A stretch of DNA of 64,000 nt from an uncultured delta proteobacterium (lineage in GTDB: Bacteria > Myxococcota > Myxococcia > Myxococcales > Anaeromyxobacteraceae): assembly GCA_963828255.1 (NCBI GenBank), contig CAWHDZ010000015.1:160001-224000 (forward strand). The letters run 5' to 3'. The first letter of the stretch is position 1; every line of letters starts with the position of its first letter. Positions 15,801 through 24,800 of the stretch are shown one piece after another. Made by a program: the position numbers.

Positions 15801-18800
15801 ATCATCTACGCCATCGCGCTCATCGTGGTCTACGTCGGTCTTCGCTTCGACTTCCGGTTCTCCCCCGGGGTGGTCATCGCCATCCTGCACGACGCCATCG
15901 TCACGCTCGGTTACTTCGCCTTCACCGGCCGGGAGTTCAACCTCACCTCGGTGGCGGTCATCCTCACGGTGGTCGGCTACTCGGTGAACGACACGGTCGT
16001 GGTCTACGACCGGATCCGCGAGAACCAGGGCAAGCTCAAGGGCAAGAAGCTCGCCGACATCGTCAACGTCTCCATCAACGAGACCCTGGGCCGGACCATC
16101 CTCACCTCGTTCGCGACGTCGCTTTCCCTGCTCGGGCTCCTCATCTTCGGCGTCGGAACCATCTTCGACTTCGCCATGGCCATGCTCATCGGCATCGTCT
16201 CCGGCACCTATTCCACCTGGTTCATCGCCGCTCCGATGACCATCTGGCTCGAGGAGAGGGCCGAGGCGGCGAAGCAGAGGAAGGGCGGCGCCCGCGCCGC
16301 GTGACGACCGGGTAGATTAGGAAAGATTCATGATCGCGAGGGGCCCGTCGAAAGCCGGGCCCCTCGTCCCATTTCCGGGGTACACGAGTGGGCCCCGAAC
16401 AGGTACCTTTCCGGGGCTCGCGGAACGGTGAGGAGATTCACGCGTGGACATGGTGTCGAGCGCCGTCGCAGCGGCCGCCGTGCTGCTGGCGATCGTCATG
16501 GCTGTCGGCCACGTGGTCAAGCGGCGCCGCAGGATGGCGCACGACGCCGTGGTGCTCAAGGACAAGCAGGAGAAGAACCTCCACATCCCGCGGTCGCTCC
16601 ACCCCGTCATCGACACGGACATCTGCATCGGATCCCTCTCCTGCCTGAAGGCCTGCCCGGAGGGGGACATCCTGGGCATCCAGAAAGGCACGGCGACCCT
16701 GGTCCACGCCGACCACTGCATCGGTCACGGCCGGTGCGCCGCGGAGTGCCCCGTCCAGGCCATCCGCCTCGTGATGGGAACCCACGAGCGAGGCGTGGAC
16801 CTCCCCGAGGTGGACGAGTACTTCGAGTCGAGCCGGCCCGGGGTCCACGTGGTGGGTGAACTGGGCGGGATGGGGCTCCTGCGCAACGCCGTCCGGCAGG
16901 GGCTGCACGCCGCCAAGCGGCTCGACGGAATCCTCCCCAAGGGGGGCGGCGGCAAGGCGGTGGACGTGGTCATCGTCGGCGCCGGCGCGGCCGGCCTCGC
17001 CACCGCGTGCGCGCTCCACGAGGCGGGGCGGAGCTACAGGCTCCTCGAGCAGGGGACCTGGGGCGGCACGATGTACCACTACCCGCGCCGGAAGATCGTC
17101 ATGACCGAGCCCGCCACCATCCCGGGCTTCGGCAAGATCGGAAAGTCCATCATCAGCAAGGAGGAGCTGCTCGAGACCTGGGGCAAGGCCATCGAGAAGA
17201 TCCAGGTGAAGGTCGACGAGGGGATCCAGGTCACCGGCATCGACGGCGAGGACGGCGCCTTCGCGGTCCACACCACGAAGGGGATCATCGACGCACGCAA
17301 GGTCGTGCTCGCCTGCGGCCGCCGCGGCACGCCGAGGAAGATGGGGGTCCCGGGCGAGGAGCTCCAGAAGGTCACCTACGGCTTCACCGACGCCGAGCAG
17401 TACGGCGGGCGGCGGGTCCTCGTGGTGGGCGGAGGCGACTCGGCCCTCGAGGCGGCCATCCAGATCGCCGAGCTGGGCACCTCCGAGGTGGCGCTCTCCT
17501 ACCGCGGCGCCGAGCTCGGACGGGCCCGGCAGGCCAACCGGGACAAGCTGACCGCCCTCTCCGAGGCCGGGCAGCTCACGCTGCTCCTGCCCTCGCAGAT
17601 CAAGTACGTCACCGAGACCGAGGTCCGACTCGAATGGGACGGGCGCGAGATGCGCCTGCCCAACGACGACATCATCGTCAACATCGGCGGCGACCCGCCC
17701 GACGGCTTCCTCAAGAAGGCCGGCGTGGAGATGCGCCGCTACAAGGGGGAGCAGCTCGGGGCCAAGACCGGCGAGGACTACGTCAGCGAGGAGGAGATGA
17801 AGATGCGCCGGAGGCTGCGGCGCACGCTGGCGCTCTACGCCTGCCTGGGAGCCACCATCGTGGCCTACCTGGCCTACAAGGGCTGGGGCTACTACCAGCT
17901 CACCACCATGGCCCGGCTTCGGTCGCCGATGCACGGCGCCTTCAAGTCGGCGGGGCCGTGGGGGCACGGGGTGGGGATCGTGGCCACGGTCTTCATGCTC
18001 TCGAACTTCCTCTACCCGGTGCGCAAGCGCACCCGGTCCCTGACCGGCCTGGGGGACATCCGCGACTGGCTCAACTTCCACGTCTTCGTGGGGTTCATGA
18101 GCCCGCTCGTCATCGCGTTCCACGCCGCGTTCCAGTCGAACAACGTGCTCGCCACCGCGACCGCCATCGCGCTCGGGATCGTGGTGGGCACCGGGCTCAT
18201 CGGCCGCTTCATCTACGGGCTCGTTCCCTCCGTGGACGGCCACGCCGAGGAGCTCGAGCTCATCTCCGGCCGGTTCGAGCGGCTCCGGTCCACCGTTGAG
18301 CCGATGCTCGCCGGGGCCCGGGAGAGGAACCGGCTCGACAAGCTGGTGGCCTCGGCGACGGCCCAGGTTCCGAAGAGCTCTCTCATCGTCGCCCTCCTGC
18401 GGGAGCCGCTGTCCGGGCTGCGCTTCCGGTTTCGCCTCCTGCGGGTGCGGTTCCTCTTCACCGGGACGTCGCAGTACACTCGATTTCGCATCTCGGTGCT
18501 GCGCCTGCGCCGGCTCCGTTTCCAGATCGCCTTTTACGGCGGCCTGCGAAACCTGCTACGAAACTGGCGTGTCATGCACGCCTCCCTGGCGGTCTTCCTC
18601 GTCTTCGTCATGACCGTGCACATCGGCGTCTCGCTCTACCTGGGCTACGGACTGAAATGACCAATCGACGAACCTGCACGGGTACCCGCCAGATCCTCGC
18701 CCCGCTGGCCGTCGCCGTCGCGCTGCTCGCCCTCCCGGCGCGGGCCGACCTCATCTCCCCCGGCGAGCTCTCCCGCGCCCACGAGAAGCTGGAGGGGCTA

Positions 18801-21800: not shown

Positions 21801-24800
21801 CGGCCAGCTCCCCAGCATCCGGGGAGATCTGGGATACGCGGTCTGGCTCGCCAGCCCGTCGGGGCCGGGGGACTCGCAGCGAATGCAGCTCGACGTCCAG
21901 GTGAACGGACTCGACGCCTTCGCCGGGTTCAAGTTCTTCGCCGACGCGCGCCTTTTACAATGGACCCAGCGGGACGAGACGTACGTGCCGGGATCCGCGA
22001 CCCAGTTGCTGGTCTACGACCTGGAGCTCTCCCAGCGCGACCCGAAGAGGAGCTGGAGCGCCGCCTTCGGACGGGTCATGCCCTGGTTCGCCCCCGGCTC
22101 GACGGTCTTCGACGGCGCCCAGGGCGGGCTGCGGTTCGGCCGGACCGAGGTCGGCGTCTTCGGGGGCGTGGTCCCGGATCCCTACACCACCGAGCCGACC
22201 CTCAACCGGTACACCGGCGGCGTCTACGTCAACTTCGAGGCCCCCCTGGGATCCACGCTGCTCTCCGGCAGCGCGCGCGGCGCGGTGGTGCAGAACCCCG
22301 CCGTGCTCCGCCACTACGAGGGGGAGCTCCTGCTGAACTACTGGGCGGGCGGCGTCTTCAGCGCCTCCGGCAACCTGCGCATGGGGTTCGGCGACGTTCA
22401 CGCGCCGTCCTACATCGACGCGGCCCGCCTGGCGCTCAGCATCCGGCCCGTCCCCATCTTCTGGATCTCGGGCGGCTTCTCCTACTGGGGACTCGCGATG
22501 CCGAACGACGAGCCCATCGCCACCTACCCCGGTCCCTCCCGCCGGGCCGACGGCTCGATCGGCGTGGACGCGACCCCCTGGCTGCGCATCGCCGGCCTGG
22601 GAGGTTGGGTGGACGACCTGACGTCCGGCCTGTCCCACACCTACGTGGGGCCCGAGGTGACCTTCACGAAGGTGCTGGCCGGCCTCTCCTTCGGCTACCT
22701 GAAGGACCTGGGATGGGTGGAGGGGCAGAGCGCCTGGGGGCAGATCGGCTGGGCCCCCGCACCGGGAGCGCGACTCACCGGCCGGGCCTCCTGGTTCCAG
22801 ACCACCCAGACCGTCGGCGGGGTGTCGAACTCCGCGCCGGCGAACGACGCCGGCCTCACCCTGAACGGGACGGTCGGGCTGACCCGCTGGCTCTCGCTCC
22901 GGGCGTCGGTGATGGTGCGGGCCGGGATCGACAACTTCGAGGCGTCGGTGCCATTCGGGACGGCGGCGAACGTGTTCCTCGTCGGCACCTACTGACCGCG
23001 GCTGGGGCGCGGTCGTGCGGGGGCGGGCGGGTGCTCCGCAGGCGGGCGGCGCTGCAGGCGGATCGCCTTCGTTCCGGGAGGCCGGCTGGGGAAGCCCGGG
23101 CCGAAGGCGACGCGAACAGCGCGCCTCGTGGGGAGATCCGGGCGCCCACTCGCGGACGGCGTCCCGCGGGCGGTGAGGACGGGACCGCCGGGAACGCGTT
23201 CGCCTGGCCGTCATGGGAACTGCGACACACTCGCGGACCGAGTGAGCCCGGCCCGTGCCCGCGATCGCCACTCCGAGCGGCGCCTCCGCACCGGGCGCCG
23301 GGAACCGGCGATGCTCTGGCCCGGCGTGCCCCGGCGCCACCAGAGCCGCGAACGCCACCGCCGGGAGGACAAGCGCCGCGGAGAGTGGTGTCCCAGCGCC
23401 CGGCGGCAGCCGGCCTCCCGGAACGAAGGCGCCTCGCGCGACGCCGCCCTACTTCCCGCGGGAGAACTCCTCCATGAACGTCGCCAGCGCATCGACCCAC
23501 TCGAACGGCACGGCGTTGTACGTGGACACCCGGATCCCGCCCACCGAGCGGTGACCCTTCAGCCCGACCATGCCGCGCTTCTTCGCCTCGGCGACGAACT
23601 GCTCCTCGAGGGGCTCGGTGGGGAGCCGGAAGACCACGTTCATCACGGAACGGCTCTCCCGCTCCACCGGGGAACGGTAGAAGGCAGGGTTGGCGTCGAT
23701 GGCCCCGTAGAGCCGGGCCGCCTTCCGGCGGTTCGCCGCCTCCATGGCGGGCAGACCGCCCAGCCCCTTCAGCCAGGCGAGCACGTTCCGCACCATGTAG
23801 ACGCCGAACGTGGGCGGCGTGTTGTAGAGCGACCTGTTCTCGGCGTGGGTGCGGAACTGGAAGATCTTGGGGATGTCCTTCCGCCCCTTCTCGACGAGTT
23901 CCTTCGACACGATGGCGACCACGATGCCGGAGGGGCCGATGTTCTTCTGGGCGCCGGCGTAGACGATGCCGAACTGCGACACGTCGAAGGGGCGCCAGAG
24001 GAAGTCGCTCGACATGTCGGCGACGAGCGGTGTCGCCCCGGTGCCGGGGTAGGCGCGCGACGCATCCACGTTGAACTCGATGCCGTGGATGGTCTCGTTC
24101 GACGTGAGGTGCAGGTAGGAGGCGGCCGGATCGACCTTCACCTCGGCGGGGGAGGGGACGCGGACGTAGCTCTTCTCCTTGCCGTCGCCGGTGCCGGTGG
24201 TCTGGGTCGCGACCGAGCCGCCCAGCATGGCCGCCACCACCTTGGCCTCGCCGACCGCCTTCTCGCCCCAGGCGCCGGTGACCAGGTACTGGGCCGCCTT
24301 GCCCTTCTCCATGAGGTTCATGGGGATCTGGGCGAACAGGGCCGACGCCCCACCCTGGAGGAACAGGATCTCGTGGGTGGCGGGAACGGCGAGGAGTTCG
24401 CGGAGAAGGGACAGCGCCTCGTCGTGGACCGCCTCGTACTCCTTGCCTCGGTGGCTGTGCTCCATGACCGACATGCCGCTGCCGGCGAGGTCGAGGAGTT
24501 CCTCCCGGGCCCGCTCCAGCGCGGGGAGCGGCAAGGCTGCGGGACCGGCGTTGAAGTTCATCTTGCGGGCCATGGCGTGCCTCCGTGCGGCGGGTGGGGT
24601 TCGGCTGCCGGGACGACGGCGGTCAGCGGGCCGGGGGGACCCCGGGGATTCCCGGGGGCGCGCCGCGCTGCCGCAGCTCGGCGATGGCGGCGCCGGCCTG
24701 GCCGGCGAAGCGCCCCGACTTGTCGGTGGCGATGACCTTGAGCCAGGCCTCCTCGGCGCGCTTCGTGTCCTTCAGGTCGTAGGCGAAGACGACGCCGATG

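Follow-up and report, generated by a model that had tools for sequence, protein, structure and literature searches.

A probable Myxococcota variant of the PCC3 gene cluster with a ferredoxin-flavoprotein fused to its predicted di-haem membrane domain

Results

The window, a 64,000-nucleotide stretch of Anaeromyxobacteraceae DNA, holds a four-gene operon that we read, at a probability of roughly 0.55, as a Myxococcota variant of PCC3 in which a flavoprotein is fused to the inner-membrane protein (IMP) and electrons would run outward from NADPH through FAD, Fe-S clusters, two b haems and 30 c haems. PCC3 is itself a predicted porin-cytochrome c cluster of putative function, according to the available parts of He et al. 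2017 (PMC5566968) and Hoover et al. (PMC9900912). The element not found in print, as far as those parts go, is the partner of the IMP, a YpdA-like flavoprotein that is circularly permuted, anchored in the membrane and equipped with a ferredoxin in which Ser and His replace Cys ligands; the text of the PCC3 literature covered contained no mention of a ferredoxin-flavoprotein partner. The features are as follows.

16431..16435, + strand: Shine-Dalgarno-like AGGAG, 8 nt 5' of the GTG start of gene 1 (sequence)
16444..18660, + strand: gene 1, 738 aa, GTG start; anchor, ferredoxin, permuted YpdA-like flavoprotein and predicted PCC3-type di-haem inner-membrane domain (ORF, Pfam, alignment, AlphaFold2)
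16462..16518, + strand: N-terminal membrane anchor, residues 7-25, N-out/C-in (K/R distribution)
16600..16773, + strand: dicluster ferredoxin domain, residues 53-110 (Pfam Fer4_10, E 1e-10)
16789..16932, + strand: displaced C-terminal FAD-binding segment, residues 116-163, with the 'GD'-motif equivalent GVHVVGE (profile search)
16960..17748, + strand: FAD/NAD(P)H core, residues 173-435, closest to YpdA/Bdr and TrxR-type FNR
17800..18657, + strand: five-helix membrane domain of the PCC3 IMP type, residues 453-738 (motifs, AlphaFold2, HHalign, Pfam)
18657..20477, + strand: gene 2, 606 aa, secreted 20-haem cytochrome c (CxxCH count, PCC3 homology)
20474..21322, + strand: gene 3, 282 aa, secreted 10-haem cytochrome c (CxxCH count)
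21319..22995, + strand: gene 4, 558 aa, outer-membrane protein (predicted structure; ends FLVGTY)

The ORF coordinates bear out the survey's finding of four genes with 4-nt overlaps, the junctions ATGA, GTGA and ATGA coupling all four, and likewise the counts of 20 and 10 CxxCH motifs in genes 2 and 3. No match to a sigma-70-type promoter was found within 16250-23500. Gene 1 is present as a single copy in the genome.

The membrane domain of gene 1 carries the landmarks W542-H546-H560, TGLIGR (583-588) and W708-H712-H726, together with an Arg-rich cytoplasmic helical insert at residues 604-696. AlphaFold2 predicted an N-terminal helix and five hydrophobic helices (449-484, 505-529, 539-562, 568-593 and 698-732) at a mean pLDDT of 80 and a pTM of 0.58, the latter leaving the geometry between domains unsure. 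Both Trp-His-His sets are invariant in 111/111 full-length homologues, and the four paired His in 68/68 sequences of a deeper alignment that includes stand-alone relatives; H497, which had been counted among the invariant residues, proved variable (105/111, 45/68 and 65/110). Pfam matches of the membrane part alone were as faint as first described (DUF4405 at E 0.079, Ferric_reduct at E 0.64, nothing else), and at E<=0.1 the 68 family members matched three families of di-haem cytochromes b, DUF4405 in 49 cases, cytochrome b561 in 29 and Ferric_reduct in 28, all cytochrome b matches being weak. Haem b binding was shown for a DUF4405 protein (10.1101/2024.03.13.584918). Against the PDB, all matches of the domain profile had E>=0.04 (cytochrome b6, E 0.09), and in fold searches with the whole of gene 1 the matches were taken up by the flavoprotein part. 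A profile comparison with proteobacterial IMPs gave an HHalign probability of 99.8% (E 1e-27, 230 columns). In the parts of He et al. 2017 available (PMC5566968), the five-helix PCC3/PCC4 IMP is described with two WX3HX13H motifs and likened to ferric reductase/NOX, and all of these IMP motifs are present in gene 1. In the proposal of electron export, the parts and topology do agree with a wire that leads to the surface and has its NAD(P)H-type input in the cytoplasm. The NOX-like His-x13-His pairs are already published for the PCC3 IMP.

The anchor helix of gene 1 has no K/R before it and eight in residues 24-45; these positive-inside counts place flavin and ferredoxin domains in the cytoplasm, in agreement with the initial assignment, and the anchor is retained in stand-alone flavoprotein homologues. 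The Pfam matches Fer4_10 (53-103) and Pyr_redox_3/2 (174-433) were reproduced. The supposed 2x[4Fe-4S] domain has just six Cys, in the motifs C61xxS64xxC67xxxC71P and C92xxH95xxC98xxxC102P, where Ser64 and His95 replace the second ligand and are each invariant (111/111 full-length homologues). In the cross-phylum set the second-motif ligand is His in 77/77, and the first-motif ligand is Cys in 34, Ser in 28, Thr in 12 and Ala in 3 (n=77). The domain has two three-Cys sites, which probably hold either [3Fe-4S] or Ser/His-ligated [4Fe-4S] clusters.

The flavoprotein is circularly permuted, a property absent from the earlier account: the FAD segment at residues 116-163 sits ahead of the first Rossmann motif. 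Of the 15 PDB matches of its profile at E<=1, 13 fell on the C-terminal FAD segment (of GltD, glutathione reductase, LpdA, FNR and Sth), the best at E 0.017, and the YpdA alignment to gene 1 ends at chain residue 274-284 of 326. In a permutation check against its own genome, the top non-self match had an E of 1e-4. CxxC is absent from the FAD/NAD(P)H core (residues 173-435), and its GGGDSA and Y-R354 motifs are presumably of the NADP(H) type.

Gene 2 consists of a conserved N-terminal domain followed by repeats, at ~29 aa per haem, and aligns over residues 11-601 with a Sideroxydans PCC3 cytochrome (32% identity, E 6e-89). It had been recorded as free of Pfam matches, yet Cytochrome_C7 matches at E 3e-24. 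The N-terminal half of gene 3 is made of gene-2-type repeats; a lipoprotein Cys is absent from gene 3, which in 4/50 related operons is fused to gene 2 and probably represents the barrel-proximal segment of the wire. Beyond CxxCH there are 24 His in gene 2 and 11 in gene 3, so that bis-His ligation is possible for all haems, and the operon total of 30 c haems compares with the ~27 needed across a periplasm (PMC7096707). A complex prediction of the IMP with the N-terminus of gene 2 scored 0.35 against 0.00 for the best control, with runs sharing at least 87% of contacts and a partner pLDDT of at least 79. The score mark was reached by 116/157 solved and 2/215 mismatched pairs; of these, no more than 18 of the solved pairs, yet both of the mismatched ones, scored <=0.60, and for this reason docking of the gene 2 N-terminal domain on the membrane domain is a weak prediction. 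The predicted fold of gene 4 is well modelled and upholds the barrel assignment, showing a plug-less barrel of 22 strands (residues 166-557) and a small N-terminal beta domain (residues 44-117) with C88 and C100 invariant.

Among 80 Myxococcota loci, the flavoprotein lies immediately upstream of the membrane domain in 72/72 with room for it, a multihaem gene comes next in 69/75 having at least 1 kb downstream, and a barrel follows in 50/50 operon loci having at least 6 kb downstream, a conservation beyond chance. A lipoprotein cytochrome is an extra in 21/50 related operons; it is absent from the present operon, and no clear orthologue was found elsewhere in the genome. Whether the line is 'complete' is thus uncertain.

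A cross-phylum set of 80 loci was chosen by the flavoprotein motif alone, and 79 were used after one frameshifted locus was dropped. The IMP was found in 68, and 64 encode a cytochrome with 8 or more haems; where both flanks reach 6 kb or more (37 loci) the numbers were 36 and 36, with both in 35 and neither in 0. Searching Burkholderiales with an IMP profile built from flavoprotein-adjacent copies gave matches in 18/301 genomes, one being the centre genome; the flavoprotein lies within 350 bp of the IMP in 15 of the other 17, and two weak matches lack it. In 151 Gallionellaceae genomes, which are kin and not independent, the IMP occurs in 69, the flavoprotein in 69 and both in 67, and 66/72 flavoprotein copies are within 3 kb of an IMP. 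Sideroxydans locus L242 encodes the IMP, a porin of 723 aa and cytochromes with 24, 18 and 13 haems, and the flavoprotein lies divergent beside the IMP. Fusions exist in both orders, flavoprotein-IMP in the present operon and IMP-flavoprotein in family P0347 (two full-length members), and both retain the anchor helix, which keeps the flavin on the cytoplasmic side. Judged from these sequences, the flavoprotein is a dedicated partner of the IMP, normally separate and fused here.

Discussion

In the outward reading, cytoplasmic NADPH, the probable donor, would hand hydride to FAD in a TrxR/FNR-type domain without a disulfide centre, and FAD would pass single electrons to the two three-Cys Fe-S clusters. 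From there they would reach the cytoplasm-side b haem (H546/H712) and next the periplasm-side b haem (H560/H726), a pairing proposed because helices 3 and 5 appear to run parallel in-to-out. The N-terminal domain of gene 2 may dock on the membrane domain, as weakly predicted, the 20+10 c haems would span the periplasm and reach into the 22-strand barrel, and the end point may be surface acceptors or a separately encoded outer cytochrome. A quinone side-door is possible beside this main route, whose quinone independence, as first proposed, is putative. Since electrons would leave without protons, the route would spend membrane potential, and its role would hence be that of a redox valve or reductase and not of a respiratory chain that conserves energy.

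With the same entry mechanism the wire could instead be an assimilatory or protective reductase, its electrons going to soluble Fe(III)/Cu(II) chelates, to oxygen or into envelope repair as with FRE, STEAP or MsrPQ, or it could store electrons as a capacitor; solids would not be respired, and only the end acceptor would differ. The kinship of the membrane domain to ferric-reductase-like domains, the putative NADP(H)-type motif and the want of a lipoprotein outer cytochrome agree with such a role, as do the carriers Emticicia oligotrophica (plasmid pEMTOL02), Undibacterium, Piscinibacter and Myxococcus sp. RHSTA-1-4, which we take to be aerobes. The operon, however, holds no transporter or repair gene, and the outer cytochromes of many relatives, with 30-75 haems, far exceed the needs of soluble substrates, so that we consider this role improbable. 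Even more doubtful is an inward conduit, in which electrons from Fe(II), minerals or partner cells enter via barrel and cytochromes to the quinone pool or NAD(P)+. The host family, Anaeromyxobacteraceae, is presumably Fe(III)-reducing, and most carriers found are not known as iron oxidisers; estimates from redox potentials give ~-45 kJ per mol e- outward and ~+55 from Fe(II) to NADP+, the latter with the membrane potential opposing. An inward flow is what the naming of PCC3 among candidate iron oxidases assumes. The cluster is common in Gallionellaceae (PMC9900912), and we found the IMP in 69/151 genomes of that family. For one of the PCC3 copies in Sideroxydans CL21, the IMP is up when iron is oxidisable (10.1101/2025.02.27.639646), and IMP and porin of ES-1 were present in proteomes on magnetite and Fe(II); the extracellular cytochrome Slit_1448, however, was undetected in all listed conditions (PMC12016527), and both ES-1 PCC3 clusters are down on Fe(II) (PMC8788666).

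A quinone-linked node deserves more weight, though we still hold it to be unlikely. Here the IMP would be a cytochrome b that works on quinone, the model of He et al. 2017 in the text available (PMC5566968): the flavoprotein-ferredoxin would reduce menaquinone at the inner haem and quinol would feed the outer haem and the wire. The quinone pool would be a required or at least a major stage, and the flavoprotein one of several inputs. Protons would then travel with the electrons, sparing membrane potential. The 6/75 fused genes without downstream cytochromes would fit an NAD(P)H:quinone reductase, and in Gallionellaceae 26/92 copies of the IMP lack a flavoprotein within 3 kb. Yet the flavoprotein is wholly absent from just 2/69 IMP-bearing genomes of that family, and therefore the extra copies can be served in trans; moreover, at least 5/6 orphan loci (L030, L042, L058, L070, L088) belong to MAGs in which an operon-type copy is present as well. 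MsrQ, the nearest tested analogue, carries bound ubiquinone, which is reported to be an acceptor, not the donor (PMC12525009). A quinol oxidase would need no adjacent flavoprotein, and this one is kept beside the IMP across a dozen phyla.

The flavoprotein on which the outward reading turns can be compared with YpdA/Bdr bacillithiol disulfide reductase and TrxR-type ferredoxin-NADP+ reductases (PDB 7a76, 7a7b, 3lzw). Gene 1 scores 140 on TIGR04018, at a cut-off of 340, and differs from both groups in moving the C-terminal FAD segment to the front, in its membrane anchor and in its fusion to a ferredoxin and a putative cytochrome b domain. While the NOX dehydrogenase is a C-terminal FNR-type domain, the present one, set apart from those of MsrQ, NOX, FRE and STEAP, has a permuted TrxR/YpdA fold plus ferredoxin and lies N-terminal to the membrane domain. 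The predicted path from NAD(P)H via flavin and bis-His b haem to an extracytoplasmic acceptor is shared with MsrQ and its cytosolic NADH oxidoreductase (PMC12525009) and with NOX, FRE and STEAP (PMC5676040, PMC11031084), and so is the placing of the His pairs, which helices 3 and 5 carry. The acceptor here would be a 30-haem wire and not O2, Fe(III) or MsrP.

Like MtrCAB and OmbB-OmaB-OmcB-type conduits, the operon combines a barrel and multihaem cytochromes across the outer membrane, and 22 strands fall in the 18-22 range given for Pcc porins (PMC4245776). Those conduits, in contrast, draw on quinol via CymA, ImcH or CbcL and use soluble shuttles, and the decahaem-family scores of the present proteins are far below cut-off. 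The two-gene Pcc of Anaeromyxobacter has a porin and one 12-14-haem cytochrome (Shi et al. 2014, PMC4245776). The same IMP His motifs occur in PCC4 and MHC-IMP-'other redox protein' clusters (He et al. 2017, section 16, Suppl. Table 6), where the IMP stands beside Fe-S or other redox genes, with one Fe-S fusion (PMC5566968, in part); PF13247, which is the Fe-S family named for PCC4, also occurs in our distant paralogues L293 and L294. PCC4 differs in having 4-, 5- and 10-haem cytochromes and an IMP family distinct from that of PCC3.

The closest relative is PCC3 as described in the available parts of PMC5566968 and PMC9900912. Homology links the two in the five-helix IMP, which bears WX3HX13H twice and (S/T)GxxG, and in a ~20-haem periplasmic cytochrome; both also have a low aa-per-haem ratio and the order IMP, periplasmic cytochrome, second cytochrome, barrel. 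Unlike PCC3, described in Proteobacteria, the present operon belongs to Myxococcota, its IMP is fused behind a ferredoxin-flavoprotein, its second cytochrome has 10 haems only, and its barrel is of a 558-aa, 22-strand family that appears related at most distantly (HHalign 19%) to the 700-900-aa proteobacterial porin. The fused NADPH-type flavoprotein suggests that PCC3-like wires push electrons outward, not in from iron.

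Operon layout and genome setting

Re-reading of the sequence bore out the survey's finding on the four reading frames, on their overlaps of 4 nucleotides and on the number of CxxCH motifs (20 and 10), and the operon is genuine and well conserved. Its nearest named record is from an uncultured Anaeromyxobacter (98% identity), and a genome search found gene 1 in single copy. The operon is flanked by yajC-secD-secF and serC, as read from the translations (serC confirmed), and a sequence scan returned neither a promoter match nor a plus-strand terminator match. Bins of the operon and its flanks are covered by two metatranscriptome assemblies (30 of 30 and 28 of 30 bins), for the most part at 90-95% identity; because assembled contigs cannot show expression, we base no claim of expression on this coverage. 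Features of the window:

16444-22995, plus strand: operon of gene 1 (g01564; anchor, ferredoxin, flavoprotein and membrane parts), genes 2 and 3 (20- and 10-haem cytochromes c) and gene 4 (558-aa barrel)
18022-18030, in gene 1: arginine cluster R527-K528-R529
18205-18207, in gene 1: R588
27941-28591, plus strand: tyrosine recombinase fragment, 216 aa
28597-28672, minus strand: tRNA-Lys(TTT)
28782-30269: 495-aa reading frame

The recombinase fragment, whose best match (E-value 4e-13) stays below cut-offs, stops 5 bases short of the tRNA gene, and the region 27941-28672 is probably a remnant of an integrated element; the 495-aa frame just past the tRNA had no NCBIfam match at E ≤ 1e-5. Elsewhere in the same genome a 12-haem reading frame occurs on two contigs with identical starts (G000:C2:14283-16844 and C3:7648-10209), which may represent duplicated assembly (contamination figure 6.6%).

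The membrane domain of gene 1

According to He et al., the inner-membrane protein (IMP) of the porin-cytochrome clusters PCC3 and PCC4 is a conserved protein of about 300 aa with five helices, WX3HX13H on helices 3 and 5 and SGxxG on helix 4 (PMC5566968). Residues 453-738 of gene 1 bear all of these motifs: five helices, W542/H546/H560 and W708/H712/H726, and on helix 4 TGLIG (583-587), where G584, G587 and the following R588 are invariant and, among 110 sequences, position 583 is T in 57 and S in 53. In HHalign the domain scored 99.8% against a profile built from 29 IMPs, all but a few of them proteobacterial, and the IMP of the Sideroxydans PCC3 locus L242 matches the family profile at 5e-41. 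The core of the cluster is the already published PCC3 (PMC5566968, PMC9900912). The NOX-like idea for this IMP family is likewise in print, since He et al. likened the IMP to the ferric reductase/NOX domain in 2017, proposing two b haems and quinone activity as a hypothesis (PMC5566968). Searching 1.84 billion representatives with the IMP profile returned 3333 proteins at E ≤ 0.001, and many of the 150 matches listed are stand-alone proteins of about 290 aa.

Two b haems would be held by H546/H712 on the inside and H560/H726 on the outside. The survey's finding had also counted H497 as invariant, which the alignment refuted, H497 varying among homologues and so being ruled out as a haem ligand. 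Weak Pfam matches in 68 family members fell to DUF4405 (49), cytochrome b561 (29) and Ferric_reduct (28), against only 4, 1 and 0 in 29 proteobacterial-type members; a DUF4405 protein has been reported to bind haem b in vitro (10.1101/2024.03.13.584918). In gene 1 itself PF01794 scored 10.5 bits against a curated cut-off of 28 (best family member E 1e-4), and among PDB sequences the membrane-domain profile matched cytochrome b6 at E 0.09, besides coiled-coil noise. Fold searches with the whole gene 1 model returned the flavoprotein core only (residues 166-439) and are uninformative on the membrane domain; the ESM Atlas gave the membrane domain unnamed clusters only (score 0.92). On its cytoplasmic face, R527-K528-R529 and R588 are invariant or nearly so; by analogy with MsrQ, reported to hold FMN by two adjacent arginines (PMC12525009), this cluster could be a binding site for a flavin, for haem propionates or for the ferredoxin domain.

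The flavoprotein and its partnership with the IMP

The ferredoxin domain of gene 1, previously described as 2x[4Fe-4S], has only six cysteines. The flavoprotein part lies below the NCBIfam equivalog cut-offs (TIGR04018, 140.3 against 339.9; TIGR01292, 65.9 against 343.45) and has no cysteine at residues 311-315, hence no redox-active CxxC of the thioredoxin reductase NADPH domain. With scores so far under the cut-off and the CxxC absent, we rejected gene 1 as a thioredoxin reductase or YpdA orthologue; the database names "PreT" and "thioredoxin reductase/PorD" were set aside as automatic annotations. Circular permutation of this part was clear only with a cross-phylum profile: a single-sequence test was weak (5 of 10 matches from the expected superfamily, E 0.17-0.45), and a narrower profile had no non-self match in the window's genome. 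In the homologue P0290 an FHA domain is inserted between the displaced C-terminal FAD segment and the core of the flavoprotein, whereas L292:7163-10048, L295:6045-8993 and P0258 have inserts near the core end, of low complexity and about 200 aa long; a role of these insertions in regulation is possible.

The flavoprotein occurs in 89 of 301 Myxococcota genomes and in 30 of 45 of the window's family (counts that include the window's own genome and the unpublished G612). Its motif pattern was found in at least 119 stretches; among the matches listed, named records come from Pseudomonadota, Bacteroidota, Ignavibacteria, Gemmatimonadota, Planctomycetota, Nitrospirota, Nitrospinota, Zixibacteria, Omnitrophota, Bdellovibrionota, Spirochaetota and Myxococcota. 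We fetched 80 stretches, 79 of them intact, and found an IMP in 68 and a large cytochrome in 64; where at least 6 kb was available on each side (37 loci), an IMP was present in 36, a large cytochrome in 36, both in 35 and neither in 0. Flavoprotein and IMP were fused in 5 of the 79 loci, divergent in 32, on the same strand in 29 and convergent in 2, with no IMP in view in 11. In a further set of 79 loci, proteobacterial for the most part, 58 had an IMP (42 of the 52 with at least 6 kb upstream). Burkholderiales picked by the IMP (18 of 301 genomes, centre included) carried the flavoprotein within 350 bp in 15 of the other 17, both exceptions being weak IMP matches. Among 151 genomes of the Sideroxydans family, Gallionellaceae, 69 have the IMP, 69 the flavoprotein and 67 both, and the partner lies within 3 kb of 66 of the 72 flavoprotein copies and of 66 of the 92 IMP copies, counts drawn from kin that are not independent and with an IMP profile built from flavoprotein-adjacent copies. 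Counted against a fixed partnership are the 26 IMP copies with no flavoprotein nearby and the 6 of 75 fused genes with no cytochrome downstream.

A reverse fusion, IMP first, was found in P0347 and comprises two full-length members; the flavin lies inside in both orders. In a tree made by a quick method, which left out most of the rows L016-L092 and three in four of L213-L291, the window falls within a 27-row clade of fused Myxococcota genes (support 95). Since the flavoprotein-IMP order may, on this tree, have arisen once, we count only the two fusion orders as separate fusions. Across 99 split loci the flavoprotein, IMP and cytochrome distances correlate at rho 0.77-0.81, values that reflect shared descent and single out no pair.

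Several loci depart from the common layout. No cytochrome or barrel follows the fused gene in L030, L042, L058, L061 (cut before its flavoprotein part), L070 and L088, an aminotransferase-like gene following it in L030 and L058; at least 5 such orphans come from MAGs that also have an operon-type copy. Frameshifted homologues (L019, L022, L023, L037, L064, L109, L112), mostly from long-contig MAGs, are probably due to sequencing errors. Fused genes apparently outside Myxococcota are L112 (Thermoanaerobaculia) and P0335 (Elusimicrobiota). On the Emticicia oligotrophica plasmid pEMTOL02 (L212, NC_018749.1 78197-89995) a cluster of like layout, with ccsA in front, encodes a hypothetical protein, the flavoprotein (the only one matched by search), two cytochrome c3-family proteins and a 538-aa hypothetical protein; the module can therefore travel with a maturation gene.

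The c-haem wire and the barrel

Gene 2, for which no Pfam domain had been reported earlier, does have a Pfam match. Its 20 haems, at about 29 aa per haem, compare with about 21 haems at a low aa-per-haem ratio in the PCC3 periplasmic cytochrome, and along its length it shares 32% identity with the 24-haem cytochrome of L242 (E 6e-89). The N-terminal domain is kept across phyla, and in 4 of 50 related operons gene 3 is fused to the C-terminal end; the N-terminus should therefore point to the inner membrane. Such a contact is weakly suggested by a predicted complex between the membrane domain and gene 2 residues 31-200, which scored 0.35 against 0.00 for the best control, with at least 87% of contacts shared between runs and partner pLDDT of at least 79; of the 157 solved pairs 116 reached the mark, and of the 215 mismatched ones 2, but with a score this low only 18 solved pairs and both mismatches did.

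Gene 3 occupies the position of the extracellular cytochrome, for which 10-35 haems are reported (PMC9900912), and has 10, but it matches the L242 periplasmic protein (36%, E 3e-36) better than the outer cytochromes there (25-28%, E 1e-18 and 5e-16). It lacks a lipoprotein cysteine, and its first half consists of gene-2-type repeats (median 54.7 bits, against 13.1 for lipoprotein cytochromes). Neither gene reaches the DmsE/MtrA-family TIGR03508 (gene 3, 36.7; gene 2, 43.2; cut-off 192.2). About 27 haems have been estimated to cross the periplasm (PMC7096707), and the operon has 30. A lipoprotein cytochrome is added in 21 of 50 related operons and is absent from this one. The genome holds 41 reading frames with at least 4 CxxCH motifs; two further clusters of giant cytochromes in it (G000:C7:208488-244718 and C27:170977-188940), with several lipoprotein-like signals and up to 49, 46, 42 and 37 CxxCH, are candidates for the outer partner.

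The gene 4 model (pLDDT 84.8) comprises a small disulfide-bearing beta domain and a 22-strand barrel; its fold matches are outer-membrane barrels, 22-strand receptors first. ESM Atlas clusters at 0.99 are unnamed, and named barrel clusters, below 0.9, serve as leads only. Compared with the proteobacterial PCC3 porins, gene 4 gave 19% in HHalign (E 0.0012), is alike only in a short GR...FDG stretch and has no N-terminal TPR-like region; it is at most distantly related to them.

Direction of electron flow

Our observations on the operon are folds, motifs, topology signals and gene linkage. Cytoplasmic NADPH would be the donor to the FAD of gene 1, from which electrons would pass through two atypical Fe-S clusters, presumably a relay, to the inner b haem (H546/H712) and the outer (H560/H726), then to the c haems of gene 2, to gene 3 and out through the gene 4 barrel. 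From assumed midpoint values, outward flow from NADPH to Fe(III) oxide was calculated at about -45 kJ and inward flow from Fe(II) to NADP+ at about +55 kJ per mol of electrons, outward being favoured because the membrane potential pulls electrons out. Since 2017 PCC3 has been a candidate iron oxidase with an IMP of function unassigned in print; the conserved NADPH-type flavoprotein provides a likely donor for the IMP and predicts the opposite direction. Published PCC3 expression is mixed and leans towards outward flow. Both PCC3 clusters of strain ES-1 reportedly fell on Fe(II) (PMC8788666); ES-1 proteomes detected the IMP and porin and left the PCC3 extracellular cytochrome undetected in the conditions listed (PMC12016527); one PCC3 IMP of strain CL21 rose with iron oxidation (10.1101/2025.02.27.639646). 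We give the outward, NADPH-fed conduit a probability of about 0.55.

To strict independence of quinone we give somewhat less than an even chance. The Gram-negative conduits in one review take electrons from the quinone pool (PMC7096707). The nearest tested analogue, MsrQ, receives electrons from a cytosolic NADH oxidoreductase through flavin and haem, with bound ubiquinone as a proposed acceptor (PMC12525009); the entry logic therefore exists and a quinone side-door is plausible. Our search for quinone-free carriers gave no discrimination, UbiA-family genes being present in 5 of 5 carrier genomes and 14 of 14 controls. Outward flow with no protons discharges the membrane, and therefore a quinone-free wire would be a valve or a reductase, not an ATP-making route, a consequence absent from the survey's interpretation. 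Tentatively, and with the balance slightly against it, we propose that PCC3-type conduits, in about a dozen phyla, form a class of extracellular electron transfer from cytoplasmic NADPH across both membranes, via FAD, a pair of atypical Fe-S clusters, two b haems and an unbroken c-haem wire, independent of quinone and of soluble shuttles, acting as outward, potential-spending valves, not iron oxidases, with fused gene 1 as the single-chain entry module.

In the PCC3 and porin-cytochrome literature outside subscription papers, neither the flavoprotein partner nor its permutation or fusion was found described. Part of the link may stand in a supplementary domain figure of He et al. (PMC5566968), whose Suppl. 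Table 6 gives "other redox proteins" of 412-805 aa, unnamed, as neighbours of related IMPs and who report an Fe-S gene in fusion with a PCC4 IMP. The partner changes the reading of PCC3 genes in environmental genomes, and the fusion makes a single chain of the donor site, the Fe-S relay and the membrane haems. If true, a quinone-free NADPH outlet would be a compact part with which to wire cell metabolism to electrodes.

Comparison with known systems

The gene 1 membrane domain has in common with NOX/FRE proteins the His pairs on helices 3 and 5. The NOX/FRE dehydrogenase is a C-terminal FNR-type FAD/NADPH domain, whereas that of gene 1 is an N-terminal TrxR/YpdA fold. The operon was not taken to be the Anaeromyxobacter Pcc of Shi 2014 (PMC4245776); the porins described in PMC7399161 and PMC4245776 are of families other than that of gene 4. 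PCC4 has periplasmic cytochromes of 4, 5 and 10 haems, and the operon only those of 20 and 10. A third architecture of 987-1028 aa (L293:6580-9540 and L294:7220-10303), in which an N-terminal extension and several Fe-S motifs, PF13247 among them, accompany the permuted flavoprotein, a Cys-rich motif and the IMP, adjoins 33-36-haem cytochromes and may link PCC3 to PCC4. A Lentimicrobium cluster with 61- and 20-haem cytochromes was called unlike any characterized module in a 2026 paper (PMC13013709); a Lentimicrobium locus in our data encodes the IMP, the flavoprotein, a barrel and cytochromes of 20 and 28 haems, and the published cluster, likened to it by gene content, probably belongs to this family. 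With PCC3 the operon shares the IMP motifs, a periplasmic-type 20-haem cytochrome and an outer-membrane beta-barrel in the cluster; because this barrel fails homology to the PCC3 porin family, the operon is a PCC3-like variant and not a strict member.
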